A stretch of 54,229 nt of DNA from a virus (lineage: Duplodnaviria > Caudoviricetes): positions 1-54,229 of IMG/VR virus record IMGVR_UViG_3300030433_002535, one strand, 5' to 3'. Shown piece after piece: positions 2,230 through 20,176 of the stretch. The translations under genes and the position numbers were made by a program. Under the pieces are notes generated by a model, which made no database searches, was not told where the DNA came from, and was given only the letters and a program-made list of their open reading frames with translations. Each line of letters begins with the position of its first letter. Within the stretch, counting starts at the first letter, position 1.

Positions 2230-2676
2230 GTGGCCCTAGAGGACGCTTGGAACCTCCTTAAGTCACTCTGTCCTTGGTGTGAGCAGTTGTCTACTACCAG
2301 AGATGAAGCGGGTAACATAGTGTGCACCACCCCCGGTTGTGGGTACCAAGGCCCTGCTGACACAAGCCAAGTCAGCCTGCCCACTATCAGGACTGAAACC
2401 ACCTACGGCCCTGAAAAAGATGAGACTGACGATGAGTTCATGCGAAATAGATATGGGCCCTCGCCAGAATTCAAAGCACCAGATTTCAAGGCAAACATGC
2501 CTGAGAAGATACGTGAGAAGATGCAGGCTGAGCCAAATGCTGGGGAGATATGCCCTCAGTGCGATTCGATGAATGTCAAGCACACTCACACTCAACAGAC
2601 TCGGTCTGCTGACGAGCCGGAGACCAAGTTCTACCAATGCAATGACTGTGGAAAACCGTTCAGGAGTTACGCCTGA
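2230..2676 (+). CDS. tfs: Archaeal transcription factor S (TFS)/TFIIS-like transcript cleavage factor with N-terminal tag
   Basis: C-terminal zinc ribbon CPQC...QQTRSADEPETKFYQCNDC carries the diagnostic QTRSADEP acidic hairpin. N-terminal ribbon CPWC...CTTPGC. GTG at 2230 gives (M)ALEDAWNLLKS. Confidence 0.9.
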   Translation: MALEDAWNLLKSLCPWCEQLSTTRDEAGNIVCTTPGCGYQGPADTSQVSLPTIRTETTYGPEKDETDDEFMRNRYGPSPEFKAPDFKANMPEKIREKMQAEPNAGEICPQCDSMNVKHTHTQQTRSADEPETKFYQCNDCGKPFRSYA

Positions 2677-5600
2677 TGCAAAGCAAAGATTGGTGGAACG
2701 TCCTCAAGCGGCGAAAAGACGACGATGACGAGGACCATGGTCAGTATGACAGGATGGACGTCCCGTCTGAGTTCGGTCCTGCAGCAGATGAGAGTGAACA
2801 GGACGAGGAGAAGGCAGAAGACGCTTCTATGACCATGGCAGACATGGTTAATCTAGATGCTCTCGAAGAATTAGGGGTTCACACTGAGAATATCGCCCAC
2901 CCTTTTGACGGCGGAGAGCCATACGATGACACTGCTTTGGCTAACTCCATGAAGCAATGGGTCGACAATGGGATGGTGAGGGAGGGCGAGGAACTTCCGG
3001 GTAATATCAAGGATATACTCCTGTCAGTGTTCCTCCTAGGCACTTCTAATCTCAAGGGAGTGGACTCACTAGGGCGTGCTTATGGAGGTTCTGACAAGTT
3101 CGGTAGGGGAAGGGACGTCATGGCTCTCAAGGACTTCTTGAGGCTCACCACCGAGTTATACGCCAAAGACCCAGACTCGGGAGAACTGGTCCTGCGCACT
3201 AATAGGAGAATCGGAGAGGCCCAAGACAGGCTTGATGAGGCTATACGGCAGAGAGCGGAGGACGAGAGTTCCGTCCCGGAACGCCAGATTGAGATGCTCG
3301 AATTCGACCTGAGTCAGGCTCGAGAGGCCGTCGATGCGCAGATTGCAAGGAGGGATAAGTTGAAGGAAGACGCAGAGAAGTCCCTCAATGACCTCGTAGG
3401 GCAACTAGGTGGACGGTTCTCAGAACCTGCCATGCTAAGCCTGATGGCGAAGTACTGGGCACAGTACGTCCACGGCGACGACTGGCTCATGGAAGGGCTC
3501 CAAGGCAAGGAATACTTCGATGCAGAGGCGTGGCAGGAGCACAATGATGCGCTCGTCGAGCAATTGAAACTGGTAATGTCACTACAGGACGAAGACGCAA
3601 TCCAGAGAGTGCGAGCATCGCTTGACGAGCACAAGGAGAGCAAGTACAAGATGGGCAGTGAGGAGTTCAAGAAGGAGAGGATGAGAAAGAGCCGACTCTT
3701 CTCCTCATTGCAATCGATATACGCTGACATGTGGAGGGACATATTCAATCCGATACTGACTTGGAACCAACGACAGCAGGGAGAGAGGCTGATAGCGAGG
3801 GCCCATGATGTCATAGAGAGCGGAAACCTGCCTAATTTCTGGAATACCGACCTAGATACCATATACGGAGTCGAATCTGATAAGGGGCGCCCGCATACTT
3901 ACTCCTCCTACAACCCAGAGTTGTTCAACCCCCAGCATTACGAAGCAGGTGGTCCGCTCTCGGAGGAGATTCTGTACTCCGAGACTGCCGCTGATGCTGT
4001 ACGAAAACTCATGGAGCGGTTTCCGACTATGCAGGGCTGCCATGCCACTACAGACCTCCTAAATCGATTGGAAAGGGGCGCCGAGTCGAAGAACACCCAA
4101 GTGAAGGAGTGGTTGGAGCACATACGCCACCCTGCCACTCTCGACAATGTGATAGGCACGTCCCAGACCTACCAAGGCCATTTATCCGGGCTCTCTCATG
4201 GCCATATATGCCCTGAGTGCCAGAATGGCAACCACGACCACTTCCTCAAGGACGATGCTTCTCCATTCCAGCCTCGCTTGCTCAATCCCAATAGCGACCA
4301 GCAAGCCTCGAAACTAGCAGGTGCTCCTTTCAGCCAGTCAGAGGGAGCCATGAGGGTCATACGAGCAGTCAATGAGAAGAGGGAGACGTACCGGGAATTG
4401 GTGAAGCAGAGCGAGAAACTAAAGCGTGAAGCAGAGAAACTCTACGCTCAGGGGGATGAACAGGGGGCTATTGCGAAGAGAATGGAATTCGACCGAGTCA
4501 GGACATCGCTCTTGTCTAGGGACCAACTCCATGCAATGGCGGCTGAGCCACCCCCGGAAGGCACTGTGACATTGACAGACAGCGAAGGCAACGAAGTCCC
4601 CATGGACTTCGTCCGCATACCTTCCTTTGAGTCATTCGAGGATGAGGCTCTCGAAGCAGCAGCACAATCAGGAGAACTAGCCACTCCTTCAGGATACGCT
4701 GACATTGACCCCGATACTGGACTCATTCGCGATATCGTACTAGGGGCTAAGCAGAAGGGGAAAACCAGACCATCGATTCTCCGCAACGCAGTAGGCCTCG
4801 AAAGGGACATCAATGACATAATGATGAGAGTAAGAGACCCAGAGGGGGAAGAGGTCGAACCCATCAGTTCCGAGTTGTGGTCCATACAGAGAGACAAAGG
4901 AGATAGGCTGCCGGGCACGGAGGACAGGGAACGGCAACTCGCCAGAGCGCATTCCCACTTAGGTGAGAGAGCAGGCCATTCCTTGGATTACACTCCTCAA
5001 GTGGCTGAGTTGCAGAGCACTTGGGCATTCATCAAAGAGCGCATGGATTCCTTGCGAGGATTGAGAGAAGCAGTCAGCAAGGGAGAGAGCCCGAACACCG
5101 AAGGCTCATTCATCCATGACTGGGACGATGCACTCAGGCAATGGACGATGAGCAAGCGGACAGGTGAGATAGACCACTATGACATCTTTGCTAGACTGAA
5201 GACATTGGAGGAGGCGGATAGCGACAACGAGAAACTATCAAAACTCGCCAAGGAGACGGGTATGAAGACCAACGCTCTCAAACAGAGCCTTCGAGAGCCT
5301 CTGCAATTCCACCGTGAGTTGGCTTATCTGATACATGACTTGAGCACGAGGACCTCGATGCCCCCGAGGGCTTGGAAGGAGAACCAGCAAAGACTCGGAC
5401 GTGACGAAGACATGCCTCTAGGCAAGTTCGACAGCAGCATGCAGGGCATGGACGTTCAGAGAGAAGCAGGCATGCAGGCACCAACGAGAGAGCGAGTCCA
5501 CTCTAGTCAAAATATAGACCCTTTGCTCCGTTTCGTCTATGAGACAAAGGAGAACAACCGCAGTAAGACGGTCATGCAGGAGAAGACTGTTGTGAAAGAC

Positions 5601-8600
5601 GGCAAGAAGCAAACCATAGAAGTGCCTGTTGTAGTGCCTTGGTCTTGGCAAGGCGGTGCGATTCCTGCTGATGACAGAAAAAGGACTTGGACGCAAAGGG
5701 ACCCAGAGGGGGCTATCCCGATGGGAAGGCGCACACTGGCAGCCGCCGATGTCATAGACCCCGAAACAGGAGGGAGATTGCTTCTGAATGAGACTCTCCT
5801 GCGCGACTATCAGACTCGCAATTTACGAATGGGGCCGAAGGATAGAAAGACCCCAGAGGGCAAAGGAGATTTTCCACCTGTCGTTTTGCACCCCCCTCAT
5901 GTCAGGAAGAACAAGAAGGCCCTCGGGTACAATGCAGATATCGAGAATGCGATTGAGGCTAATGTCAATATGCACGTCAACGCTCTTTCGCTCAGAACTC
6001 ACAATAACTACGGGCAACCAGCAGCAGAGCAGATTGGCTACGTGCAGCCTTTTGAAATCTCACCATATTGGGCAGTAGCGCTGCAATACGGCTTCCCTCA
6101 GCACATGATGTCCGATGAAGACGGTACTACTTTCCATGGAGAGGGTGGCTGGCCGATTGACTCCGAAGGCAACCCTGATTACAGCAGGAGGGACGCATTC
6201 CTCAAGATATTCGATTTCGCCATGAGAGGCGGCAGCCTGAGTCAGTATTACTCTCGGGTGAGCCCAGAGACCGGAGAGTTAGAGAGGCTACCCACTATGG
6301 ATGTGTTGAGCCAATGGACCGACTCCAAGGGTATGCCTGTCATCATACCACTCCTCTTGTCTGGCATAATGAATCACATTATGGGCAACAACACGATAGA
6401 GAAGTGGGAGAACACATTCTTACCGGCTGAGGCTGAGGGGAACGTGCCGAGAGGGGAGGATAGCGCGTGGCGTGCTCAGTTCCCACACAAAGCCAACCTG
6501 TATGACGCATTGAAGAAAGACTTGTTGGATTGGGTCGTCAATCCCGAGGCCCATCTTAGGAAACTACAAGCGCAAATGGGAGTGAAGATAGGAGAAGAGA
6601 CTGTCTCTGGTGATGACTTCGTCCCCGGCACCTTATCGATTCAAAGGAACGAGCAGACTAATAGAAACCCGACTGGGGGATTCGAGAGGTGTCGACATTG
6701 CAATAAAGACGGATACATCAATTACGACACTCTAGTAACGAGGGGGATGGCACAAGGCAGCATAGACCCCATGGCTGGTCAAGAGGATAAGGTGGCAGGC
6801 GTGGAGAAGATGCTCGAAGACGGTATCGCAAAAGTATGGGGAGACCAGAATGACTGGAGAGAGCAGTACAAGGCAGAGGCTCCCCATCTGAACAGGCCTG
6901 CCGCGAACGTGCATATCACAGGGGTGCGCTTCACTTGTCCCGATTGTGACGGTACTGGACTGTGTGGAGGGCATCACCCTGAGCGCAACCAAGGGACTGA
7001 ACTACCAGACAACCTGTCTCACATATATTCTGGACTGCTCGATAAGGCCCATGACTATCGGACCGCCGATGCTGCGATGGCGACTAGCCTGATGTCTCCC
7101 GGCCCTACTTACATCCTAGGCGAGACGATGGAGGATTTCTTCGCGAGAAACCCAGAGTTAGACCCTTCGCTGTCTGATGACATCGATAGCAAGTACTGGA
7201 TGTCCTCATACTTCCAATCCATGGGTCACGGAGAGCACCAATCTTCATTCTTCGGCACAGGTGAGATGAGTTTCAGAGAGGCAATCGAGGCTGCGATAGC
7301 AGGGCATTCTGCGCACGAGGCTGATAAGATTCGTTCTGCCGATTTCACAAAGAGGGGGGAGGAATTCGGTCAGAGGTTCCGAAAGCCCGAGCCAGAGAGC
7401 GAGGAAAGCAAGGAGGTCTTGGAAATACAGCATCAATTGGAGCGAATCAATGAGAAGATGCACGAATTCTCAGAGAGGGATTACACCCATCGTGAGATGA
7501 CGAGGCGAAACGCCCAAGGGACTTTGAAGACTGTCAAGAAAAAAGGAAAACCACCTGTGTGGTCAAAGGACCCGGAGAACGTAGGAGGGCCATTGAGCCA
7601 AGCAGAGCAAGAAAATTTCATGAAATTGAGGCATCTCAGGGACAGGCTGCGTCGTAGATTGCACTACATCAACGCTGGTGACAGTGCTGAGACCGCTGCG
7701 GAAAAAGCAGAGCAAGAGCATGCTGAGAGACTATCCCGATTCCAAGAGCAACCAGAAGTCGAACCTGTAGAGCGGAAGAGCAGAGTGTACGAGAAAGGGC
7801 CGGGAGTCTACCACGGGGCAGATTCCAATGGCGTTCTCTATCGATGGGCGGCTGATAAGAACAAGGTGTTTGGCACTGCAAGTCAATGGGGGCTCGTAGG
7901 CGACAGCCCTCATATGCTGCAATACGACGACGCTACGATGAAGTACATCGGCCATAAGAAGAAAATGGACGCACTGCAGAGGGAGATGTGGGACCCAGAT
8001 TTACCTGAGAAGGAACTCAGAGAAAAGCAAAAACAGCATGCTAAGATGATGCAAGAAGGAGAGGAGTTGTTCCGAAAAGCCCCATTCCACATCGATTTCG
8101 AGACTCATTTCAATACTGTCAATAGACTCATGGGCATCTTGCGTGACTCCTCACAGAGTGACGAAGAGAAGAACGAAGCCGCTCTACAACTGAGCCTGAT
8201 GCCACCTCTCTCCAGAGTGCTTGTCCAGCATCAAGATGAGAAGAGTGGAAAGATGAAGTACAGTTATCTAGTCTATCCCCGAATCGACGGCGCCACTCCG
8301 GCTGAGGTACTAGGATTCGACTATGTTAGTGACCTCATGGGTGAGGAGTACACAAAGCAGGTAGACTGGTCTGGCAAATTGAGAGAATTGCAGAAACAAG
8401 CCGAACTCCATGGCAGGCTCTCGGAAATGCTCGAGCCAATCCTCGATGTCATGGGTCGTAGCGGTAGGACCAGTGATGACATAGCAAATATGAGTGCAGA
8501 AGAGTTCAAATCCGCTTTGGATGACCTCGGAGTGACAGATAGATACGGTGCTCCAGTCCTAGGAGTGACAGACAGAGGGGGCTATCCCTTGATGTCTAAA

Positions 8601-10448
8601 ATCCAAATCACCGCCCCAGAGCGAAAGTTCATCGACCAATACAGCGTGTACAGGGATATTCTGAATAACGAGAAGTCGACGGAAAAAGAGAAAGAGGATG
8701 CTCAAGAACAACTGGAGATTATGATGAAGCAATACGAAAAGGGCGGAGTCGCAGAAGAGAGGGTTGGTGTGTCATACCACCCGAATCTCGGTTTTGCCAA
8801 GAGCCCCATCGATAAACTGCTCGAGGAATTGGGCTATCGCTTCACTGACAGAGAAGGAACTGGGTCGCAAGCCTACAATCTGGAGCAATACGGAGAGCCA
8901 AGCGCTCTATCAGATTTATGCTATGTGCAAGCCCACCCGATGGATTTCAATGAGATAGAGACTGAGACGGGCAGTTTCACTCCACATAGCCTCATAATGG
9001 CTCTAGCCTCCGCCGCTTTGTATGGCGAAACCGCAGATTTACCGGGCTCCTATGACCGTGAGAGTGGGTGGTCAAACTTCACATACGCACCGAGTGCGGG
9101 TGATGGTGGGTCACTAGACAAGTTGAGAGAGAAAACCAAAGTGGAATTCAACAAGATAGTTCAAGAAATGGCAAAATGGCAGCCCAATACCTTATTGTCA
9201 TTGATGAGGCACGGGGGGCTCACTCACTTAGCAGGGAACCCCGAAGTGAGAAACAACTTGGAGAAAATGGTCAGTGCCACGCACTACAATCTAGATTTAG
9301 GTGGTGCTAGGACAGACCGTGATAGATGGCAAGAAGCCGTTCCCCTCAATAACGTGCATGAGGTAAAAGCGGCAATACGTGACCATGCCCACCATGCCAA
9401 AATGATTAATGATATTATTGAGGAGGTCAACATGCTCAAGCAAGCCAAAGAGAAGCATAGGTCATCATTAGATGAATTGATAGGCAGTGGCGCTGACCAA
9501 GCGCGGATAGCAGCAACGCAGGACGCCTTGGATGTGACCAATGGGCATCTACGCAGACTTAACGATGAACTCAGAGCACTCAGAGGCGACAAGGCTCTAG
9601 AACTTCCCGCGGACAGCGACCCCGGTGTCGATTTCTTATGGGACGATGGCAATCCTTGGACAATCTCCGGCGATAATCTCGTGAAGAACGTACGTTTCGT
9701 AGAAGGAGGATGGGAGAGCGAAGACCAGCAAATGGCCGAACGCGCATCTTTAGATGAACCTGAAGGAATGGTACCACGCTTCTACCAAGAGACTTACACT
9801 GATGCAAACGGTCATTCTCGAGTCCGCTTGGTCCCGAATACCAATTTCGACAAGGAAGTGGAAATGCTAAGTCAAGCAATTGAAGGGGTAGGTAGTACGG
9901 GACTAGGCAGTTTCCCATTCACTCCCGAGTCGTTCCAGAGGTTCCCGATATCAAGATTAGATGAGCAAGAAAGAAGCAGTTACATGAGATATCCCTCTGG
10001 GGTAGTCACCAATGACAAACCTACAGCACCAAGCCGCGTGTACAGCACAACTGGTATAGGACCAAGTACAGTAGTGCCACAGGAAGAGTGGCTAGACCCA
10101 ATCCACGGTGTAGATACTAGACCCCCTCTGCCAGCAGTGGGCAGCATAGTCACTAGAAAGGGAGTAGAGAGGCCATACACAGAGGAAGATAGACTGCAAG
10201 ACCTCAGGGATGCTATAAAAAGAGGGCATGGAACTACGAAATTCGCAGGTGACGGTGATGACATCGAACCAGCCCCGCATCAGGTCATGGACGGCGGTGG
10301 GTACCTCTCTCCTCAACGAGGTTACTTCCACCCTGAGTCAATAGCATCGAGAATGTCTGATGATAGTGAAGACGACATTATAGAAATGAGTTGGAAAACT
10401 GGTGACCCCTTAGAGGATGCCATGAGAATTCTCAAGATTCTTTCATAA
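2676..10448 (+). CDS. Giant (2590 aa) orphan protein, possibly an internal virion/ejection protein
   Basis: Uninterrupted ORF coupled to tfs (TGATG). Has coiled-coil segments, CPEC and CRHCNKDG...CPDCDGTGLC Cys motifs, and tag variants at both ends (DWWNVLKR; GDPLEDAMRILK). Function is inferred. Confidence 0.85.
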   Translation: MQSKDWWNVLKRRKDDDDEDHGQYDRMDVPSEFGPAADESEQDEEKAEDASMTMADMVNLDALEELGVHTENIAHPFDGGEPYDDTALANSMKQWVDNGMVREGEELPGNIKDILLSVFLLGTSNLKGVDSLGRAYGGSDKFGRGRDVMALKDFLRLTTELYAKDPDSGELVLRTNRRIGEAQDRLDEAIRQRAEDESSVPERQIEMLEFDLSQAREAVDAQIARRDKLKEDAEKSLNDLVGQLGGRFSEPAMLSLMAKYWAQYVHGDDWLMEGLQGKEYFDAEAWQEHNDALVEQLKLVMSLQDEDAIQRVRASLDEHKESKYKMGSEEFKKERMRKSRLFSSLQSIYADMWRDIFNPILTWNQRQQGERLIARAHDVIESGNLPNFWNTDLDTIYGVESDKGRPHTYSSYNPELFNPQHYEAGGPLSEEILYSETAADAVRKLMERFPTMQGCHATTDLLNRLERGAESKNTQVKEWLEHIRHPATLDNVIGTSQTYQGHLSGLSHGHICPECQNGNHDHFLKDDASPFQPRLLNPNSDQQASKLAGAPFSQSEGAMRVIRAVNEKRETYRELVKQSEKLKREAEKLYAQGDEQGAIAKRMEFDRVRTSLLSRDQLHAMAAEPPPEGTVTLTDSEGNEVPMDFVRIPSFESFEDEALEAAAQSGELATPSGYADIDPDTGLIRDIVLGAKQKGKTRPSILRNAVGLERDINDIMMRVRDPEGEEVEPISSELWSIQRDKGDRLPGTEDRERQLARAHSHLGERAGHSLDYTPQVAELQSTWAFIKERMDSLRGLREAVSKGESPNTEGSFIHDWDDALRQWTMSKRTGEIDHYDIFARLKTLEEADSDNEKLSKLAKETGMKTNALKQSLREPLQFHRELAYLIHDLSTRTSMPPRAWKENQQRLGRDEDMPLGKFDSSMQGMDVQREAGMQAPTRERVHSSQNIDPLLRFVYETKENNRSKTVMQEKTVVKDGKKQTIEVPVVVPWSWQGGAIPADDRKRTWTQRDPEGAIPMGRRTLAAADVIDPETGGRLLLNETLLRDYQTRNLRMGPKDRKTPEGKGDFPPVVLHPPHVRKNKKALGYNADIENAIEANVNMHVNALSLRTHNNYGQPAAEQIGYVQPFEISPYWAVALQYGFPQHMMSDEDGTTFHGEGGWPIDSEGNPDYSRRDAFLKIFDFAMRGGSLSQYYSRVSPETGELERLPTMDVLSQWTDSKGMPVIIPLLLSGIMNHIMGNNTIEKWENTFLPAEAEGNVPRGEDSAWRAQFPHKANLYDALKKDLLDWVVNPEAHLRKLQAQMGVKIGEETVSGDDFVPGTLSIQRNEQTNRNPTGGFERCRHCNKDGYINYDTLVTRGMAQGSIDPMAGQEDKVAGVEKMLEDGIAKVWGDQNDWREQYKAEAPHLNRPAANVHITGVRFTCPDCDGTGLCGGHHPERNQGTELPDNLSHIYSGLLDKAHDYRTADAAMATSLMSPGPTYILGETMEDFFARNPELDPSLSDDIDSKYWMSSYFQSMGHGEHQSSFFGTGEMSFREAIEAAIAGHSAHEADKIRSADFTKRGEEFGQRFRKPEPESEESKEVLEIQHQLERINEKMHEFSERDYTHREMTRRNAQGTLKTVKKKGKPPVWSKDPENVGGPLSQAEQENFMKLRHLRDRLRRRLHYINAGDSAETAAEKAEQEHAERLSRFQEQPEVEPVERKSRVYEKGPGVYHGADSNGVLYRWAADKNKVFGTASQWGLVGDSPHMLQYDDATMKYIGHKKKMDALQREMWDPDLPEKELREKQKQHAKMMQEGEELFRKAPFHIDFETHFNTVNRLMGILRDSSQSDEEKNEAALQLSLMPPLSRVLVQHQDEKSGKMKYSYLVYPRIDGATPAEVLGFDYVSDLMGEEYTKQVDWSGKLRELQKQAELHGRLSEMLEPILDVMGRSGRTSDDIANMSAEEFKSALDDLGVTDRYGAPVLGVTDRGGYPLMSKIQITAPERKFIDQYSVYRDILNNEKSTEKEKEDAQEQLEIMMKQYEKGGVAEERVGVSYHPNLGFAKSPIDKLLEELGYRFTDREGTGSQAYNLEQYGEPSALSDLCYVQAHPMDFNEIETETGSFTPHSLIMALASAALYGETADLPGSYDRESGWSNFTYAPSAGDGGSLDKLREKTKVEFNKIVQEMAKWQPNTLLSLMRHGGLTHLAGNPEVRNNLEKMVSATHYNLDLGGARTDRDRWQEAVPLNNVHEVKAAIRDHAHHAKMINDIIEEVNMLKQAKEKHRSSLDELIGSGADQARIAATQDALDVTNGHLRRLNDELRALRGDKALELPADSDPGVDFLWDDGNPWTISGDNLVKNVRFVEGGWESEDQQMAERASLDEPEGMVPRFYQETYTDANGHSRVRLVPNTNFDKEVEMLSQAIEGVGSTGLGSFPFTPESFQRFPISRLDEQERSSYMRYPSGVVTNDKPTAPSRVYSTTGIGPSTVVPQEEWLDPIHGVDTRPPLPAVGSIVTRKGVERPYTEEDRLQDLRDAIKRGHGTTKFAGDGDDIEPAPHQVMDGGGYLSPQRGYFHPESIASRMSDDSEDDIIEMSWKTGDPLEDAMRILKILS

Positions 10449-10465
10449 TTCTATTCCAATAATAC

Positions 10466-10490
10466 TCTTCTTTTTTACTAAAGAAAAAGA
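10466..10490 (+). terminator. Putative archaeal oligo-T terminator / TCTTTTT...AAAAAGA inverted repeat
   Basis: TCTTCTTTTTTACTAAAGAAAAAGA in the AT-rich intergenic gap just after the giant ORF. Confidence 0.5.
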
Positions 10491-10569
10491 TAAGAAAATC
10501 AATAACACGGTCAGCCTTACAACAGGAGGGTATATGTGCTAGTTGTTTTTCGGAGTCTCAAGGAGAGCA

Positions 10570-11121
10570 ATGAGCATGCAGTCCCTACCCCCATTACAAC
10601 CAAATGATTCTAGCGCTGACGAGATACGAGTTCTAGGACTGATAACCTTCGTATCTATTCTGGTCGGAGCAGCCATAGCCGTCTTTGATGCTGGCTTGTG
10701 GTTGAGGATGGAGGGAGATGTAAGAACCAACGCGGCGACTTACTCAATGGGAGCCTTCACTCTTCAGGGAATGTCATTCGTTCTGTACAAACTCCTCATG
10801 CAAGAGAACCTCGACCATCGTGCGACATTCGCGAGGATGGACAGGGACAGGGCTCGTAAGATGCAGGGCATGCAGCAAGCCATGGCTAACAAGCAGATGG
10901 AACTCGAGATGAAGATGCAGGAGGCTCAGTTCATGAGGCAATTGAGCATGATGGAGCATCAGAATGAGATGCAGATGGGCGATATGGACTCTGGTTTGCC
11001 TCAACACGGCCCTGAGGACAAGGGTGGTATAGACCTCGGTGGGAGCAAGGCCGTGACAAAGAGTCAGAGTAATAAGCATGATGCTCGTGACAAGTCTGGG
11101 AAGTTCTCTAAGAAGGCTTGA
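10570..11121 (+). CDS. Membrane protein (2 predicted TM helices plus Met/Gln-rich coiled coil)
   Basis: Hydrophobic segments VLGLITFVSILVGAAIAVF and YSMGAFTLQGMSFVLY, followed by an M/Q/E-rich helix. ATG at 10570 is preceded by AGGAG. Confidence 0.75.
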   Translation: MSMQSLPPLQPNDSSADEIRVLGLITFVSILVGAAIAVFDAGLWLRMEGDVRTNAATYSMGAFTLQGMSFVLYKLLMQENLDHRATFARMDRDRARKMQGMQQAMANKQMELEMKMQEAQFMRQLSMMEHQNEMQMGDMDSGLPQHGPEDKGGIDLGGSKAVTKSQSNKHDARDKSGKFSKKA

Positions 11122-11369
11122 TTATGGGTTGGTTATTTCACACACCGAGCGATGACACCACCGAAGCGACCCTGAGAGGGTTGCACATGGCAAACACCCT
11201 AGACAACTATTACGAGTATGGCTGGGGCTGGGCTCGCACTCTTCTCTTCACTGTCAGTGCTGTTTTCATCACGTCCTTCGTCGAGAAGACGATGGACATC
11301 AGCGTTTGGGACAGAACGATAGAGTGGTTCATCGAATATGCTCAAGACAAAGTGAATGGATGGACGTGA
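11118..11369 (+). CDS. Small membrane protein
   Basis: 83 aa with hydrophobic segment WARTLLFTVSAVFITSFV. TTG overlaps the upstream stop (TTGA); ATG at 11124 is an alternative start. Confidence 0.7.
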   Translation: MIMGWLFHTPSDDTTEATLRGLHMANTLDNYYEYGWGWARTLLFTVSAVFITSFVEKTMDISVWDRTIEWFIEYAQDKVNGWT

Positions 11370-11377
11370 TTTGTTGA

Positions 11378-12097
11378 ATGGTGGGAGTAGCAGGCTCAGT
11401 GCTGATGGGCGCAGTGGTGTACGGCAAGGAACTCTACAACTTCCTAAAACCTCGAAGAATTGGCGTGTACGGGCCGTCAATGGTTGGAAAAACTACGTTA
11501 GACAGGTACATGACGACTCCGGGAGAAATGGCAGACGTAGAAGAGAGGACTACGCATACAAGCCGCCTAGTAGGGGGAGGTCACGTACTCCCCAAGGCTA
11601 CAAGGAAAAGAGTGAGATGGCATGGAGAGAAGAGAGTCATCCATTCGGCGGACCTCGGAGGCCAGCAGAGATTCTGGAACCTGTGGGTGGACGACATGGT
11701 AGAAAGACAGGTGGAGGTAGTGGTATTCCTGATAGACGACAGAGGGAAGAATGGCTCAAATGCAGACATAATAGACGCAGTGGGAGGTCTAGACTACCTC
11801 GTAGACTCATTAATCGAGAGGAATTGGAGGTATCGAAGCCTCAAGACTTGGTGGAAGGGACGAAAATACGCCCCGAAGCAGATATGGGTAATCGCCAACA
11901 AGGCCGACAAGTGGTGGGACCAGAACGCAAACATCCTGTGGCAGGCCAAGAGGCTTCGGGAGCACAACATATTCGACCCTTACAGGGAATCCATGGTGAA
12001 ACTCCAAAAGGCAGGCATTCCCTGCAGAGTCAACATGATGGCGACCAAGATAGGGTGGAACGTCGAGCAGAGCCTCCTCGAGATGCTCAGTTGGTGA
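11378..12097 (+). CDS. Small Ras-superfamily (Arf-like) GTPase with hydrophobic N-terminus
   Basis: G1 GPSMVGKTT, G3 DLGGQQRFWNLW (compare Arf DVGGQ..RPLW), G4 NKAD, and a G5-like MAT; N-terminal MVGVAGSVLMGAVVY. Confidence 0.88.
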   Translation: MVGVAGSVLMGAVVYGKELYNFLKPRRIGVYGPSMVGKTTLDRYMTTPGEMADVEERTTHTSRLVGGGHVLPKATRKRVRWHGEKRVIHSADLGGQQRFWNLWVDDMVERQVEVVVFLIDDRGKNGSNADIIDAVGGLDYLVDSLIERNWRYRSLKTWWKGRKYAPKQIWVIANKADKWWDQNANILWQAKRLREHNIFDPYRESMVKLQKAGIPCRVNMMATKIGWNVEQSLLEMLSW

Positions 12098-12101
12098 AAT
12101 A

Positions 12102-13097
12102 ATGGTAATGAACACAATGAATCCCTTTGGACAAACCGCCGGACAGCCTCTAGCAACGCAGACCAGTCAAGAAATGGTGAACCTAGCAGCGAATTCGCAG
12201 GTCCCGCTTGCTCAGTTGCAGCAGATGGCTCAAGCCCAGAACATGATGCAGGACGCTGCCATGCAGAGACACATAGAGATACCCAAGGTGAACTTCTATC
12301 CTTCCAACCATCCCAATCCCAAGAAGGCTAGAAGGGCGGACATCCGACAAGCCTACAAGTTGCTCGCTCCTACCAAGAGGAGCATTCTCTCACCTAGGAG
12401 ATACTGGTTTGGTGGCAAGTACGCTTTCGTAGGAGATGCGACTCGTTGCGTCGTCGACGGCTGCGATATCGATGAACTGCTCAGGGCTGCTGGGAACGTC
12501 TATGACATGATAAAAGACGAGGACACTGGGGAGTCCCTGTACGACCTGTACTTCAAAGACCCAGTGACAGGAGCGCCTCAGGCCTTCCAAGCAAGGGAGC
12601 ACGTCACGAGTGGTAGGTTGCTACGAGGGACATATTGCCCCGAGCATCTTCATCTCTACCATCTTCTCACCAAGTGGGAGAGGGCAGAGCAAGAAGAGGA
12701 GAGCGGCAGTACGAGCAGTCTCAAGACCAAACTCAACAAAGGGGTGTCTATGGTCACTGTACCAGTGACTGGCTTTGCCATGAAGGACAACACCCCTCCA
12801 CAATTAGCCCCTTACGAGCCCTTCTTCAATATGCTCAAACAGGATAACATCCCAGTCGTACGCATCAAGGATGCCATGAAGAGAGACAAGCAAGTGATAG
12901 TCATCTTCGACATGGACCAATTCCAGACTGGCGCTAATAATCGTCTTCTGACAGACGCTGAGATGAGTGCGCCTCCCCTGCCTACGGAAAGCGTCACTGC
13001 CAATACCATGGGTCTCGCGGAACTGTTAAGCCAAACGGCCCCTGCCCCTCCACAACCAGAAGCGGTGGAGAATGCGGAGTCAGAGGTGGTAGAATGA
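12102..13097 (+). CDS. Hypothetical protein with dispersed Cys/His metal-binding motif
   Basis: 331 aa; Q/M-rich N-terminus; CVVDGC...YCPEH; same operon as the GTPase. Confidence 0.75.
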   Translation: MVMNTMNPFGQTAGQPLATQTSQEMVNLAANSQVPLAQLQQMAQAQNMMQDAAMQRHIEIPKVNFYPSNHPNPKKARRADIRQAYKLLAPTKRSILSPRRYWFGGKYAFVGDATRCVVDGCDIDELLRAAGNVYDMIKDEDTGESLYDLYFKDPVTGAPQAFQAREHVTSGRLLRGTYCPEHLHLYHLLTKWERAEQEEESGSTSSLKTKLNKGVSMVTVPVTGFAMKDNTPPQLAPYEPFFNMLKQDNIPVVRIKDAMKRDKQVIVIFDMDQFQTGANNRLLTDAEMSAPPLPTESVTANTMGLAELLSQTAPAPPQPEAVENAESEVVE

Positions 13098-13714
13098 GTC
13101 TTTTCGGTAGTAGCCCTGACATGTCTAACACTCTTTCTCTAGGCCTGCCTAATGGGCAGCAGAGCCTCCCATCACAATCTATGGGAATGGGGGGATGGGG
13201 TGCACCTCCCATGTACGACCAGAGTGGAGCGTCATTCGGTGCTGGTCTCATGGGGGCTATGGGCATGCAGCCAGCAGCGCCCATGGCACCACCATCGGAT
13301 TTGGAAGTAATGGCTGCTTTGATACAAACCAGCGCACCAGTGGATAGGTGGTTCTCAGGGCCTAACATGCAGACGCTAGTCTCCCTCATGTACAAGGTCA
13401 GCAGCCTAGCCACTATCGAGGTGCTCAAGAATGCCAAGATAGTCGAAGACGATAACGGTGACATGGTGTTCGATTTCACATCATTCTCCACTGCACCTAC
13501 TTCTGATAGCGTCACCATGGAGGCAAACAACCTACAGACTGCAGCACAAGCGCAAGTAACTGCGGCTCATCAGCAACAGCAAGCCATCCTCAACATGGTC
13601 CAGCAGAACCTCATGAGCGGCGCTTTGAGTGCGGCAATGGCGAATCCGGGCATGATGGAGAGCGTAGGCAGCGGTGTGGGTAGCGTGTTCAGAAGCATGA
13701 TGGGGGTGCGATGA
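13094..13714 (+). CDS. Hypothetical Met/Gly/Gln-rich protein with amphipathic C-terminus
   Basis: 206 aa with ATGA overlaps at both ends. Confidence 0.75.
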   Translation: MSLFGSSPDMSNTLSLGLPNGQQSLPSQSMGMGGWGAPPMYDQSGASFGAGLMGAMGMQPAAPMAPPSDLEVMAALIQTSAPVDRWFSGPNMQTLVSLMYKVSSLATIEVLKNAKIVEDDNGDMVFDFTSFSTAPTSDSVTMEANNLQTAAQAQVTAAHQQQQAILNMVQQNLMSGALSAAMANPGMMESVGSGVGSVFRSMMGVR

Positions 13715-13956
13715 TGCCCATAGACACCTTCAATGATATGATGTACGGCATGTACGACATGACCCAGATAAAGAAGTCGTCGCTCATAGACATGATAATG
13801 GTGCAGGTTATCAGTCTCACTTTGGGGGCATTCATACTGATTGCCTACTCGGCTTATGACATGAACCAGACGGAACTCATGTACTCAATGGGAATCCTGT
13901 TCTCTAGCCTGCTCCTCACTGGCACTGTCTACAAGCGCCTCGGAGACAAGGCCTGA
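13711..13956 (+). CDS. Small 2-TM membrane protein (holin-like topology)
   Basis: 81 aa, two hydrophobic helices and a basic C-terminus YKRLGDKA. Holin function is only a guess from topology. Confidence 0.7.
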   Translation: MMPIDTFNDMMYGMYDMTQIKKSSLIDMIMVQVISLTLGAFILIAYSAYDMNQTELMYSMGILFSSLLLTGTVYKRLGDKA

Positions 13957-14226
13957 CCACTTCCCCACAGGGCACTCGCTGTTTCGTAGTTTTGCTTTGT
14001 AACTTATGAAACAACCACAGAGGTCGCATCTCGCCTCTCTCCGATGCTCACAGGTCATGCAAGTCTCCTCTCGCGCCTTCCGTATTTCCTCAGGGGCATG
14101 ACTCCCTGTGATTATATCCAATCCTGCCCTTCTCAGGTCTCCTAGAGTGCGTTTCGTCAAAGGCACCCCCATCACTTTTTTCGCGCGGCCCAAACGAAAG
14201 GGCTTAGAGCGCGGCCCTTGTCTCAC
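13885..14226 (-). CDS. Small Cys-rich protein (DUF6171-like); the only convincing minus-strand gene
   Basis: R...CMTCEH..RCDLCGCFI..KAKL..SECPVGKW pattern, common in phages. The start could be ATG at 14172. Confidence 0.75.
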   Translation of the reverse strand: MRQGPRSKPFRLGRAKKVMGVPLTKRTLGDLRRAGLDIITGSHAPEEIRKAREETCMTCEHRREARCDLCGCFISYKAKLRNSECPVGKWSGLVSEALVDSASEEQAREQDSH

Positions 14227-14231
14227 ACGCT

Positions 14232-14915
14232 GTGAGCGGGCGCGTTACACGTCAATCTTGCGCTTTTTGTCAGCACGGGGACCGTGATTCTCTGGAAGAA
14301 GGGCTATTGCAAGGCAGCATATTGCCGAAGACACTAGACAAGGACATGGGATGGCGTGAGGGAACTGCAGACCGACACTTCAGGAATCACATGGGAGAGT
14401 TCCATATGGGGTCGAACAGCGATTGTGTGGTCTGCACTCATCCTGAGAGGGCTGAGTTGGAACAAGCCTACTTCACTGGTGGCATGAATAGCGAGGCCAT
14501 AGCAGAAATAATCGGATGTAGCGAGTCAACGGTCTACCATCATCTGAAGCATCACCTGAAGCCTCTCGTGCAGAAGAGCGCTGCAGACATAATATCGATT
14601 GCAACAGGGAAGGAAATGGATATGATGCGTTCCAATCTAGAGAGGGTGAATGGTGAATTAGGGCTCTTCCTCGATGACGCTGATAGAAACGACCCCTCCT
14701 ACATCAAGAATCTAGTCAGTCTCCACAAGGAAGTACGCGACACCCTCACAACCATGGTCAGGTTCCAAGAGAAGGCCATGGGGGAGAACAGCCAAAGCAT
14801 TCAAGCCGACACTGTGAACATCCTCAAGGTCGAACTGTCCAAGGAATCACCCGAGGTCTGGAAGAGAGTGCGTGCTAAATTACTCGAAGAGGAGGAAGAA
14901 GTCATTGAATCCTGA
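14232..14915 (+). CDS. Tandem Zn-finger/HTH DNA-binding protein with C-terminal helices; candidate terminase small subunit
   Basis: Two repeats of CxxCxH...HTH...Hxx(x)H (CAFCQH..RHFRNH; CVVCTH..SEAIAEIIGCSESTVYHHLKHH). It heads the operon leading to TerL. The TerS role is inferred. Confidence 0.55.
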   Translation: MSGRVTRQSCAFCQHGDRDSLEEGLLQGSILPKTLDKDMGWREGTADRHFRNHMGEFHMGSNSDCVVCTHPERAELEQAYFTGGMNSEAIAEIIGCSESTVYHHLKHHLKPLVQKSAADIISIATGKEMDMMRSNLERVNGELGLFLDDADRNDPSYIKNLVSLHKEVRDTLTTMVRFQEKAMGENSQSIQADTVNILKVELSKESPEVWKRVRAKLLEEEEEVIES

Positions 14916-18286: not shown

Positions 18287-20176
18287 ATGCAGTTGCCAGA
18301 TGACATAGAAGTCTTTCGCATCGCCTATGGTGATGAGCGTGCAGTCATCAAGTTCATGCTCCGAGAAGGAGCCAATTACGAGGAAATTCACCAAGTCATA
18401 TACGGGGAGGACCCTATCCTCAAAGCCACAAGGGAGGGCGACAGGACTCTCGTTGACACTGAGAGGTACGGGCAGTTGAACTTTCCGGGAGGGCATGGCA
18501 CTAGAGAGAACTACGCAGCGCGTCGAAGGTGGCTGAGGAACCAGCCAGAGTTGTACAACCCGGAGACTAGGCAGTACGAGCATCCTAATGTGGGTGTGGC
18601 CAAGCCCGGCATGTTCGATAGGCTCAAGCGATGGCATAGCACTAGGAGAGCGAACCAGAAACGAGCCGAAGAGAGGCACAAAATCGGTCGGGACTTGTAT
18701 CGAGGTCTAACTCACATACTATCGGACGAGTCAATTACTCACGAGCAATTGATGGAACTTCTCAGTGGTATGAATTGGACTGCTGCAGAGCACGGAGCAG
18801 GCGGGTTCCTCGACGAGGAGACACCTGAGAGAGACCCAGCGACAGACCCCACCCTCACGCAGGCAGTTGCATCAGTCACTGAAGACGCGAAGAAAAAGAA
18901 AAAGGAAAAGGAGAGAACTGGAGAGGGGGGTGAAGAGACAGCAGCACCTGTCCCCGCTGATGGGAGTGAAGGAGGGGTAGACACAGAGGCAGTCGTCGAA
19001 GATGCAATCGAACGTCGAATAGAGGAAGGAGACAGTCCTGCAGAAGCGATAGAAACCGTGCTTTATGCGTTGCACGACCCTGATTATGCAAAGGAGAAGG
19101 GCCTAGAAGGCCATCACTTCGCTTACAACATGGGAGTGCACGGACTCATAGGAGCAGAGAAGGGTGCAGACCCGGACCCAGATTTGGCCCCTCCACCATT
19201 CTGGAATAAGGAGTCCAGAAACTGGCCGCCGATACACGTAGGCGATGATGGTGGGATAATCAGATACAATCCAAATCAAATCCGCGACGAAGAGCCTCCG
19301 TGGATGGAGGCCCTCAGGGAGAGAACAGGTACGAGAGGAAGTGGGAAGCGTGGTGTTGGGGCCATGACTAACCCAACAGTCGCTAGAGTGCTCACTGGTC
19401 ATATGATAGGGCAGGAAGGCGCTTCCTCGCTACTCGCTCCGAAAGAGGACAATAGCATTGACTTCAAAGGGCTCTACAGCGCTTTAGACAGAGCCAAGCA
19501 ACACTTCAAGGGAGACCCGTACAACTTGCGTGAGAGGTACAACATACCCGAAGGCGAGGGCAGGGGCTGGCCTCTCGGAGTGTTTGATAATCAAATGATA
19601 GGGGCCAAGCCATTGCACTGGGTCAAAGACATACTCCCAGCGTGGTTGGATGACCCGAGGATGCTCCAAGAGGGCTACCCGCTCCACCTATTGGGGGTCA
19701 CGCCCGAGAACGCAGGCATTCTCAGAGAGGCGATGGCCAAGGAGACTGCTAGGCTGGAAGAGATTGAGGCAGAGAGGAAGAGGAAGCGCAGAATAGGAGT
19801 AGGGAACTTCAGTGGGCCATCAACCGACGAAGCCGGAGAAGAAAGTGGAGGGACACCGCCCGGAGGGTCACCGCCCGGAGGGTCACCGCCCGGAGGGACA
19901 GCCCAAGTTGACCAAACTAAAATCGCAGATATTGCCGCTGAAGTGGAGGAGGCTTTGGGCGCGGGGCCCCCTGTAGAAGGAGGAGCCATGACCACTTCTC
20001 CGATGTGTGCGTCTTGCGCTCAGCCTGTCCCTCTCACTCATGTTGAGCCTGAGACAGGAGGCCAGATTTGCACAGCGTGTGCTCAAGAGAGAGGCCTCAT
20101 TCAATCCTCAGATACGCAAATGAGCCTAGACCCCTTCAATCTTGCATGGGGGCGCCTCTTGAAGGGGCGTGATTGA
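18287..20176 (+). CDS. Hypothetical protein with C-terminal zinc finger and C-terminal tag
   Basis: 629 aa; DPILKA near the N-terminus; GG[TS]PP repeats; CASC..CTAC; ends IQSSDTQMSLDPFNLAWGRLLKGRD. Confidence 0.78.
   Translation: MQLPDDIEVFRIAYGDERAVIKFMLREGANYEEIHQVIYGEDPILKATREGDRTLVDTERYGQLNFPGGHGTRENYAARRRWLRNQPELYNPETRQYEHPNVGVAKPGMFDRLKRWHSTRRANQKRAEERHKIGRDLYRGLTHILSDESITHEQLMELLSGMNWTAAEHGAGGFLDEETPERDPATDPTLTQAVASVTEDAKKKKKEKERTGEGGEETAAPVPADGSEGGVDTEAVVEDAIERRIEEGDSPAEAIETVLYALHDPDYAKEKGLEGHHFAYNMGVHGLIGAEKGADPDPDLAPPPFWNKESRNWPPIHVGDDGGIIRYNPNQIRDEEPPWMEALRERTGTRGSGKRGVGAMTNPTVARVLTGHMIGQEGASSLLAPKEDNSIDFKGLYSALDRAKQHFKGDPYNLRERYNIPEGEGRGWPLGVFDNQMIGAKPLHWVKDILPAWLDDPRMLQEGYPLHLLGVTPENAGILREAMAKETARLEEIEAERKRKRRIGVGNFSGPSTDEAGEESGGTPPGGSPPGGSPPGGTAQVDQTKIADIAAEVEEALGAGPPVEGGAMTTSPMCASCAQPVPLTHVEPETGGQICTACAQERGLIQSSDTQMSLDPFNLAWGRLLKGRD
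19847..19900 (+). repeat. 15-bp tandem repeat (GGAGGG[AT]CACCGCCC) x3.6 encoding GG[TS]PP
   Basis: Read directly from the sequence. Confidence 0.9.

Follow-up and report, generated by a model that had tools for sequence, protein, structure and literature searches.

The linear virus contig IMGVR_UViG_3300030433_002535 from IMG/VR (54,229 bp, all of which we analyzed and will call the window) carries a six-gene cassette built around a small GTPase that resembles the Arf family. The six genes, which we will call g1 to g6, are packed within positions 10570-13956 on the + strand. We propose that they encode a GTP-switched module that acts at the membrane of the archaeal host, and we think that this general reading is very probably correct. 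The fuller statement, that this is a magrovirus operon whose virus-only, Arf-like switch acts at the host membrane in egress, is plausible, with somewhat less than an even chance of holding in all of its parts. The cluster had been picked out earlier from its sequence as a candidate membrane-remodelling or egress system; that observation is confirmed, and the interpretation that came with it is partly supported.

An operon around a divergent Arf-like GTPase

The cassette is compact. The junctions between g1 and g2, g2 and g3, and g3 and g4 are just 2, 8 and 4 nucleotides (nt) long, and both g4/g5 and g5/g6 overlap at ATGA. Ahead of g1 lies an intergenic gap of 121 nt (10449-10569) with a G+C content (GC) of 0.347. 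Of the eight gaps in the window that are at least 40 nt long, it is the only AT-rich one: GC is 0.49-0.55 in the remaining seven and 0.524 over the entire window. An AGGAGA site, similar to a Shine-Dalgarno sequence, precedes the ATG at 10570, and the convergent gene g7 closes the cluster at its other end. The compact cluster with these two bounds is thus just as the original prediction had it. Because the six open reading frames (ORFs) are separated by 2-8 nt or overlap at ATGA, and stand behind the sole AT-rich gap of the window, we conclude that g1-g6 are a single operon. The gap is likely to be the promoter region. A scan for sigma-70 promoters and terminators gave results near the shuffle expectation, and the sigma-70 consensus is unsuited to an archaeal host. 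In an alignment of relatives, the upstream region is AT-rich and aligns poorly, and no conserved promoter motif was seen beyond the close relatives.

The third gene, g3 (11378-12097, 239 amino acids), encodes the GTPase. It has the motifs GPSMVGKT (G1), DLGGQ (G3, within DLGGQ..RFWNLW), NKAD (G4), and a G5-like MATKIGW. We found 196 viral contig loci related to g3 and kept 80 of them, which we searched with the window's proteins using tblastn. Across these 80 loci, g3 is the best-conserved gene of the neighborhood (55-97% identity). Of 71 distinct relatives of g3, all have kept NKAD, and all but one have kept the P-loop (70) and MATxIGW (70). An AlphaFold2 model of g3, built from the family alignment (pLDDT 70.7, pTM 0.71), shows a Ras-like G domain with insertions and an N-terminal helix at residues 3-23. 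When this model was compared to the Protein Data Bank (PDB) with Foldseek, there were at least 500 matches to small GTPases at E ≤ 1e-3, and upon re-alignment with VIA-align, 993 of 1000 chains had Z ≥ 8. We therefore conclude that g3 is a genuine Ras-like small GTPase (TRAFAC class).

Within this class, several comparisons point to the same relatives. The top chains from VIA-align were Arl8b (Z 15.7, root mean square deviation 2.7 over 161 residues), with Arl1 at 14.9 and HodArfR1 at 14.4. Ranks 1-12 and 14-36 are all Arf, Arl, or Asgard ArfR chains (the title of row 4 is incomplete), and the one between them, at rank 13, is a Rag-like protein from Asgard archaea. The beta subunit of the eukaryotic signal recognition particle (SRP) receptor (SR-beta, 2fh5_B) comes 37th, with Z 14.0, and no Rab appears before rank 43 (Z 13.6). 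A search of PDB sequences with g3 alone (phmmer) gave chance matches only (glycine N-methyltransferase, E 0.16). A profile from 15 diverse members of the family has GerdArfR1 (8OUN) as its best match, with E 2.9e-10, followed by 8OUM and Arl8, and the alignment to GerdArfR1 extends through the N-terminal helix. Of the same 15 members, 8 match the Pfam family Arf at E ≤ 1 (best E 5.2e-9), 3 match SRPRB (best E 5.9e-6), and 9 match MMR_HSR1, weakly (best E 4.8e-4). From NCBIfam, the generic small_GTP domain was the sole match, in 8 of the 15. Because the motifs, the sequence profile, the Pfam Arf matches, and the fold ranking agree, we consider the Arf, Arl (especially Arl8), and Asgard ArfR families to be the nearest relatives of g3, with a modest preference over other small GTPases. 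The claim that g3 has complete G1, G3 and G4 motifs and is Arf-like therefore holds.

The signature of Arf proteins is a WDxGGQ switch II together with an interswitch toggle, and their amphipathic N-terminal helix packs against the core when GDP is bound and enters the membrane when GTP is bound. In g3, the GGQ is kept and so is an LW pair at the Arf offset downstream of it, but the tryptophan before the aspartate is replaced by alanine or serine. The likeness to Arf, Arl8 and the ArfR proteins (8OUN and 8OUM for GerdArfR1, 8OUK for HodArfR1; structures as described in the available part of bioRxiv 10.1101/2024.02.28.582541) extends to the Ras-like G domain, G1, DxGGQ, NKxD, and the G5-like motif, and the g3 helix ahead of the P-loop aligns with the amphipathic helix of ArfR. 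In contrast, g3 is only 14-20% identical to these proteins, has about 60 extra residues (in switch I and the interswitch, and after strand 4), often has glutamate or aspartate in place of the catalytic glutamine, has a hydrophobic helix, and comes from viruses only. We view g3 as a putative, very divergent Arf-type switch and not as a formal member of PF00025.

The hydrophobic N-terminus that had been noted in g3 is borne out by both the hydropathy profile and the modelled helix (residues 3-23). It has no transmembrane (TM) segment above the hydropathy threshold of 1.5 that we used for all TM calls. Both the hydrophobic N-terminus and the motifs are shared by ten full-length distant matches, including the most distant ones. 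We considered that g3 might instead be a soluble GTPase that regulates a process away from the membrane (translation, packaging, or host takeover), with its linkage to membrane genes being incidental. This would fit with the lack of a TM segment above threshold and with the MMR_HSR1 family (50S ribosome-binding GTPase) being the one that most members match, albeit weakly. However, it seems inconsistent with the retention of the hydrophobic helix even in the most distant relatives that we read, with the fixed gene order in 80 of 80 loci, and with the core being kept behind two membrane genes in a second deep group of viruses (see below). We think that a soluble role is highly improbable.

Partner proteins and their conservation

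Three of the partners are small proteins with hydrophobic helices. g1 (10570-11121) has 183 amino acids from the ATG, and its frame opens with a TTG at 10543. It was described as having two TM segments and a coiled coil. One strong TM segment (residues 21-39, hydropathy 2.65) and a coiled-coil-like region rich in Met and Gln are present, followed by a basic C-terminal tail, but the second hydrophobic helix is weaker and falls below the threshold. The invariant residues in its alignment are G23, I25, G33, W44, N54, T57, Y58, K74, E113, and L156. g2 (11124-11369; 81 amino acids from the ATG, or 83 from the TTG at 11118) begins with a highly conserved soluble peptide of 35 residues (MGWLFKTPSDDATEATLRALH..N..D..YE). 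A single, moderately hydrophobic helix follows; so the helix expected of a small TM protein is there, but it too is sub-threshold. G4, F7, D12, E16, T18, N26, D29, and Y32 are invariant. Similarly, g6 (13711-13956, 81 amino acids) has the size of a holin and one strong membrane segment (hydropathy 2.2), but the second of the two TM segments that had been proposed is a weaker helix below the threshold. A conserved DMIMVQ opens its first helix, a Y-x-R motif lies near the C-terminal end, which is short and basic (YKRLGDKA), and D27, M30, V31, and Y74 are invariant. Neither g1 nor g2 matches any family in Pfam or PHROGs. g6 matches no holin family in those databases, and no endolysin is adjacent to it or elsewhere among the ORFs that we scanned.

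The other two partners are orphans. g4 (12102-13097, 331 amino acids) was predicted to be a Cys/His protein, and C116, C179, H182, and H184 are indeed invariant, as is the motif TYCPEHLHLYHLL. It is probably metal-binding. The AlphaFold2 model has a confident core at about residues 65-205, with blocks between 71 and 200 at pLDDT 85-95. Searching with this model, the best PDB match from Foldseek has E 0.66, and among 48,161 chains compared with VIA-align, the best Z is 4.3, none reaches 5, and the only matches are to helical hairpins (for example, homeodomains and the M domain of Ffh). There is no usable match in the ESM Atlas and none in Pfam or PHROGs. The g4 family includes 651 clusters at E ≤ 1e-3 among the 8000 candidates that were scored; the 120 of these that were listed either go by "hypothetical protein" or lack a name, and no Pfam domain occurs in any of the 120. 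As modelled, g4 is without a known fold. The idea that the partners might include folds like those of GTPase-activating proteins (GAPs), guanine nucleotide exchange factors, roadblock proteins, or ESCRT proteins was not borne out: we found none, and g4 was the partner that was folded.

An Arf-like GTPase followed by a Cys/His protein is reminiscent of ArvA from Haloferax. As described in the available text of PMC10927574, ArvA drives vesicle budding and is an Arf-like GTPase whose N-terminal helix is amphipathic; it is annotated as PF01926, although its best profile match is PF00025; and the next gene encodes a Zn-ribbon protein, its partner and proposed GAP. Compared by this description, the viral cassette and ArvABC, a vesiculation operon of Euryarchaeota in which ArvA works at the cytoplasmic membrane, each combine, in one operon, an Arf-like GTPase that has an N-terminal helix (membrane-binding in ArvA and proposed to be so in g3) with a Cys-rich protein that binds metal (in the case of g4, probably) and with further partners. 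They differ in that the cassette is viral and that its GTPase is accompanied by three small membrane proteins and two orphans. We considered that the cassette might be the viral counterpart of ArvA vesiculation, that is, it might bud vesicles or remodel the envelope to make decoys, remove receptors, exclude superinfecting viruses, or release virions without lysis. Of the 15 viral family members, 9 do match MMR_HSR1 and 8 match Arf, which are the two Pfam families of ArvA, and g4 follows g3 just as the Zn-ribbon protein follows ArvA. But nothing in the window matches ArvB (OapB, PF09846), while controls from Haloferax and Methanosarcina do match; g1, g2, g4, g5, and g6 have no match to OapB or OapC (DUF2072) at E up to 1; and g4 has no Zn-ribbon match in the fold searches. 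This alternative seems quite unlikely.

g5 (13094-13714, 206 amino acids) is rich in Met, Gln, Gly, and Ser. With 9.8% Met and 9.8% Gly, it fits its earlier description as a Met/Gly-rich protein. Its N-terminus is of low complexity and its middle is conserved; it also has a PPSE motif, and small residues make up a C-terminal segment that ends in G-x-R. It has no match in the ESM Atlas or PHROGs, and the best in Pfam is a weak one (SpaA_4, E 0.073). g1 (9.9%), g5 (9.8%), and g6 (12.5%) have the three highest Met contents in the window; the other 33 ORFs are at 7.1% or less.

In SRP54, Met-rich surfaces bind hydrophobic peptides. We also considered that g3 might be a membrane receptor like SR-beta, which would aid in the targeting or insertion of viral membrane proteins, with the Met-rich proteins binding hydrophobic segments. 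In SR-beta (PF09439), the Arf-like G domain follows a hydrophobic N-terminal anchor, and g3 has a similar build. The SRPRB matches of 3 of the 15 family members, the Z of 14.0 for 2fh5_B, and the Met contents of g1, g5, and g6 fit with this idea; one relative bears the name "signal recognition particle receptor subunit beta" in its source; and the N-terminal helices of g4 weakly match the M domain of Ffh/SRP54 (Z 4.2 and 3.9). However, those Z scores of g4 are at the noise level, the Arf and Arl chains outscore SR-beta, no partner like SR-alpha (SRX) or SRP54 was seen, and there are few membrane proteins in the window that would need such a system. The histidine in switch II of SR-beta is found here in some distant members only. 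We judge an SR-beta-like role to be very unlikely.

Co-occurrence of the six genes in relatives had been set beforehand as the test that could refute the prediction. Order and strand are the same throughout, and each gene is present in 71-80 of the 80 loci: g1 in 77, g2 in 79, g3, g4, and g5 in all 80, and g6 in 71. Some of the missing genes are accounted for by three loci whose sequence starts at the GTPase or slightly ahead of it. Some relatives have extra DNA between g3 and g4. In one of these (L065), the insert holds two small genes (6721-7047 and 7040-7534), both of which start with an AWxxLK-type tag (see below), and a third, untagged small ORF.

The GTPase family appears to be confined to viruses. 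When we compared a profile of 24 of these GTPases to 1.84 billion representative proteins, there were just 86 matches at E ≤ 1e-3; the cellular Arf and Rab families were not reached, as the count would otherwise be far higher. Some of the distant clusters are on contigs of 80-98 kb. Among 185,579 species of prokaryotes (one genome each), three contigs of 8-16 kb match g3. These are binned to Maricaulis, Parvibaculum, and an Asgard archaeon, but because all three hold the full cassette as well as the downstream gene g8, they are most likely misbinned viral fragments. Beyond these three contigs, there was no cellular homolog of g3 in the 185,579 genomes, and there was no match among 50,697 phage records. 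The 50 matches to g3 that were shown from the viral structure database BFVD are all from giant viruses or unnamed. Giant-virus GTPases such as the mimivirus Rab (5XC5, Foldseek rank 16) are virus-encoded and share the fold, but they are Rab, Ras, and Ran types from viruses of eukaryotes, and, judging by their names, they are close copies of host genes. g3, in contrast, is an orphan lineage from a tailed archaeal virus, and it has fixed partner genes. Arf GTPases are also reported from putative integrated elements of Asgard archaea (bioRxiv 10.1101/2024.03.22.586370, as available in part).

More distant loci were collected with two of the distant proteins as queries, P0020 (140 relatives, of which 80 were kept as a second group) and P0006 (4 relatives); P0007 found no viral locus. 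In a FastTree phylogeny of 47 GTPases (mid-point rooted), the window's group and the second group form two clades that split deeply, and a few lone distant sequences fall between the two. Representatives of the second and third groups (L089 and L165) have the same layout as the window: a coiled-coil membrane protein, a small membrane protein, the GTPase, a protein with a GTYC..H motif, and a Met/Gln/Gly-rich protein. Using the ORFs of L089 as blastp queries, the second-group partners, which we denote by primes, were found in most of its 80 loci (g1' in 77, g2' in 78, g4' in 75, and g5' in 74). Hidden Markov models from the window's group recognized g1 in 4 of the 84 distant loci and g4 and g5 in 7 each, but did not recognize g2 or g6 in any. 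Comparing the profiles with hhalign, g4 and g4' align with 91.3% probability (E 9e-7) and g5 and g5' with 88.9% (E 2.4e-6), while 12 cross controls gave at most 20.7%. Judged from these alignments, the core of g3, g4, and g5 is conserved across deeply divergent groups of magroviruses.

Two neighbors are nearly as constant as the cassette. g7 (13885-14226, - strand, 113 amino acids) is Cys-rich and shares 72 nt with the 3' end of g6; it bounds the cassette and is outside the operon. It is found in 74 of the 80 loci, and it matches DUF6171 (E 3.3e-5, below the curated cut-off) and phrog_13558 (E 2.2e-13). g8 (14232-14915, + strand) encodes a helix-turn-helix (HTH) protein of 227 amino acids and follows the cassette in all 80 loci; we do not count it as part of the cassette. 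It matches HTH families (E 1e-4, below their cut-offs), phrog_664 (DNA-binding protein, 1.3e-5), and a small terminase PHROG (2.8e-3), so it is possibly a DNA-binding or small-terminase-like protein. Upstream of the cassette, the window has an ORF of 2590 amino acids, L089 has genes for the capsid and a SAP-domain protein, and L165 has a chaperonin. Because the flanks differ between groups, the block moves as a unit. The chaperonin, directly upstream of the cassette at L165:2820-4481, is of group II (thermosome-like, 553 amino acids).

In the window, the cassette lies between the 2590-amino-acid ORF and the HTH, terminase, and portal genes. We considered that it might form a membrane-anchored platform for virus assembly or for genome replication or packaging, with the GTPase positioning viral factories and the membrane not being breached. 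Besides its location inside or at the edge of the morphogenetic block (with the HTH, terminase, and portal genes here, and after the capsid and SAP genes in L089), this proposal would account for the constant presence of g8, with its weak match to small terminases, and small GTPases such as MglA and Arf are commonly spatial landmarks. On the other hand, no requirement for a membrane is known in the assembly of the heads or tails of such viruses, and in L165 the cassette adjoins the chaperonin, so its linkage to packaging genes is inconstant. A platform of this kind seems unlikely to us.

A proposed role at the host membrane

Arf, Arl8, and Sar1 use an N-terminal helix to bind membranes in a nucleotide-dependent way. 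Similarly, we propose that g3, when bound to GTP, would sit on the cytoplasmic membrane of the host via its N-terminal helix, as these proteins and ArvA do. g1 and g2 would receive or position g3, and the invariant cytosolic N-terminal peptide of g2 is the best candidate for a docking site. g4 would be a regulator or effector of g3, and g5 and the holin-sized g6 would be the output parts. The most likely output would be that the host membrane is breached or remodelled at a set time, which would release the progeny; we take the host to have no murein wall.

That the output is egress is a tentative choice, to which we give well below an even chance. We favor it because the exit route is not established (the egress system of archaeal tailed viruses is called "completely uncharacterized" in the available part of PMC10791045), because no lytic enzyme was seen, and because the cassette holds most of the membrane proteins in the window. 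The strong membrane segments on the + strand are confined to g1, g6, an ORF of 409 amino acids at 43092-44321, and one small, out-of-frame nested ORF. As for lysis, we scanned the 29 larger + strand ORFs (the window has 78 ORFs of at least 100 amino acids) and found no lytic enzyme families among them, which agrees with the earlier remark that no endolysin is to be seen. Like the holin lysis cassettes of tailed bacteriophages, this one is a compact late-region block with holin-sized membrane proteins (g6 and g2, with 81 amino acids each), and its virus, too, has a membrane to breach. Unlike them, it has no endolysin or spanin that we could find, it has a GTPase and two large soluble orphans at its core, and its holin-sized gene is the least conserved. 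A structural role in the virion for the cassette's proteins was also considered, and nothing favored it.

Several findings weigh against our proposal. First, the Arf assignment has its limits. Foldseek alone places Rab chains on top, the VIA-align scores range only from 15.7 to 13.4 across the best 50 rows, so that the preference for Arf over other GTPases is modest, and the window's g3 is below the Pfam cut-off for Arf (PF00025; 12.3 bits versus 22.3, E 0.12). Second, the catalytic glutamine of switch II is replaced in 28 of the 71 relatives (43 have Q, 24 have E, and 4 have D), and the 54 sequences of the second group have either Q (30) or E (24) at this site. (Single distant members have H, A, F, or D.) Because this residue is so often Glu or Asp, intrinsic hydrolysis of GTP by g3 may be slow or weak, or it may depend on a partner. 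Third, the N-terminal helix is uniformly hydrophobic and not amphipathic (hydrophobic moment 0.18-0.35), and with a hydrophobic stretch of about 15 residues, it is too short to be a standard TM segment. Fourth, g1 and g1' (0.3%) and g2 and g2' (1.2%) align no better than the controls in hhalign, so their likeness is in build only, and g6, which is missing from 9 of the 80 loci, is not recognized in the two distant groups. Finally, the cassette adjoins head genes in one group and a chaperonin in another, and these variable neighbors imply that its position is not tied to a lysis module; nor was an enzyme that degrades the S-layer found.

In its most specific form, our proposal is that the cassette is the exit machine of tailed archaeal viruses. 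The GTPase would be a nucleotide-driven timer that gathers at the membrane by way of its helix and g1/g2, and that opens or sheds the membrane together with g4, g5, and g6. This version is doubtful, and we would not call it likely. If it is true, then the holin clock would have a counterpart that is timed by GTP, built from a eukaryote-like trafficking switch and operating in a wall-less marine archaeon.

The virus and the wider window

The window is rated as 51% complete, and because it is a 54-kb record at this level of completeness, the replication half of the virus lies outside of view. Its virion and packaging genes include the large terminase (TerL), a portal protein, an S78 prohead protease, and an SU10-type capsid protein, and it also encodes a zinc ribbon of the TFIIS type. 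The hallmarks of magroviruses, as given in the available part of PMC5434244, are genomes of about 90-100 kb, an HK97-type morphogenetic block, an archaeal-type replication block that includes DNA polymerase B (PolB, family B), and in many cases a chaperonin. Among the five cassette-bearing records of 98-118 kb, all five encode PolB and four encode a chaperonin. Because these genes in complete relatives of about 100 kb match the published hallmarks, we assign the window's virus to the magrovirus type (order Magrovirales), that is, to the tailed viruses of archaea, as was originally suggested. The assignment is by hallmark genes. The host is taken from the same source, which (in its available part) links magroviruses to Marine Group II archaea and ranks them with the surface ocean's most abundant archaeal viruses (PMC5434244).

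Three giant ORFs take up much of the rest of the window: 2676-10448 (2590 amino acids), 26288-32671 (2127 amino acids), and 45522-54227 (over 2902 amino acids, running past the window's end). The only Pfam match in any of them is a Laminin_G_3 domain at the start of the third. The ORF of 409 amino acids mentioned above (43092-44321, + strand) is in the tail gene region and has several strong membrane segments at residues 180-297; it may be a membrane protein that is associated with ejection or with the tape measure. A SAP-domain protein (42039-42464, E 2.2e-13) has a counterpart at L089:4487-4981, so it is present in both groups of viruses.

We also noticed a recurrent tag of the type [ED]AW.[VL]LK, for example EAWNVLKS, EAWLVLKA, DAWNLLKS, or SWDVLKM. 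It is near the N-termini of the ORFs at 329-928, 1573-2199, 2209-2676, and 36754-37152, and near the C-termini of those at 2676-10448 and 18287-20176; the 2590-amino-acid ORF ends with DAMRILKILS. The tag could be a targeting or packaging signal. As had been claimed, none of the six cassette genes carries it, while these six other ORFs do.

The cassette appears to be undescribed in print. No GTPase is mentioned in the main text of papers on magroviruses (PMC5434244, PMC11706807, and PMC10160649) or of a survey of archaeal tailed viruses (PMC8651126), whose supplementary gene tables were not covered, and we found no description of the cassette in the literature on small GTPases of archaeal viruses or on GTPases of Poseidoniales viruses. 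We conclude that the Arf-type membrane switch occurs here in a viral form that is new, and that its partners are new as well. How tailed archaeal viruses exit their hosts is an open question (PMC10791045, in its available part), and the cassette offers six concrete genes to test. Arf-type switches are usually discussed for eukaryotes and Asgard archaea; the cassette extends them to viruses of Euryarchaeota, and it is relevant to the spread of these switches and to the uses that they had prior to eukaryotes.

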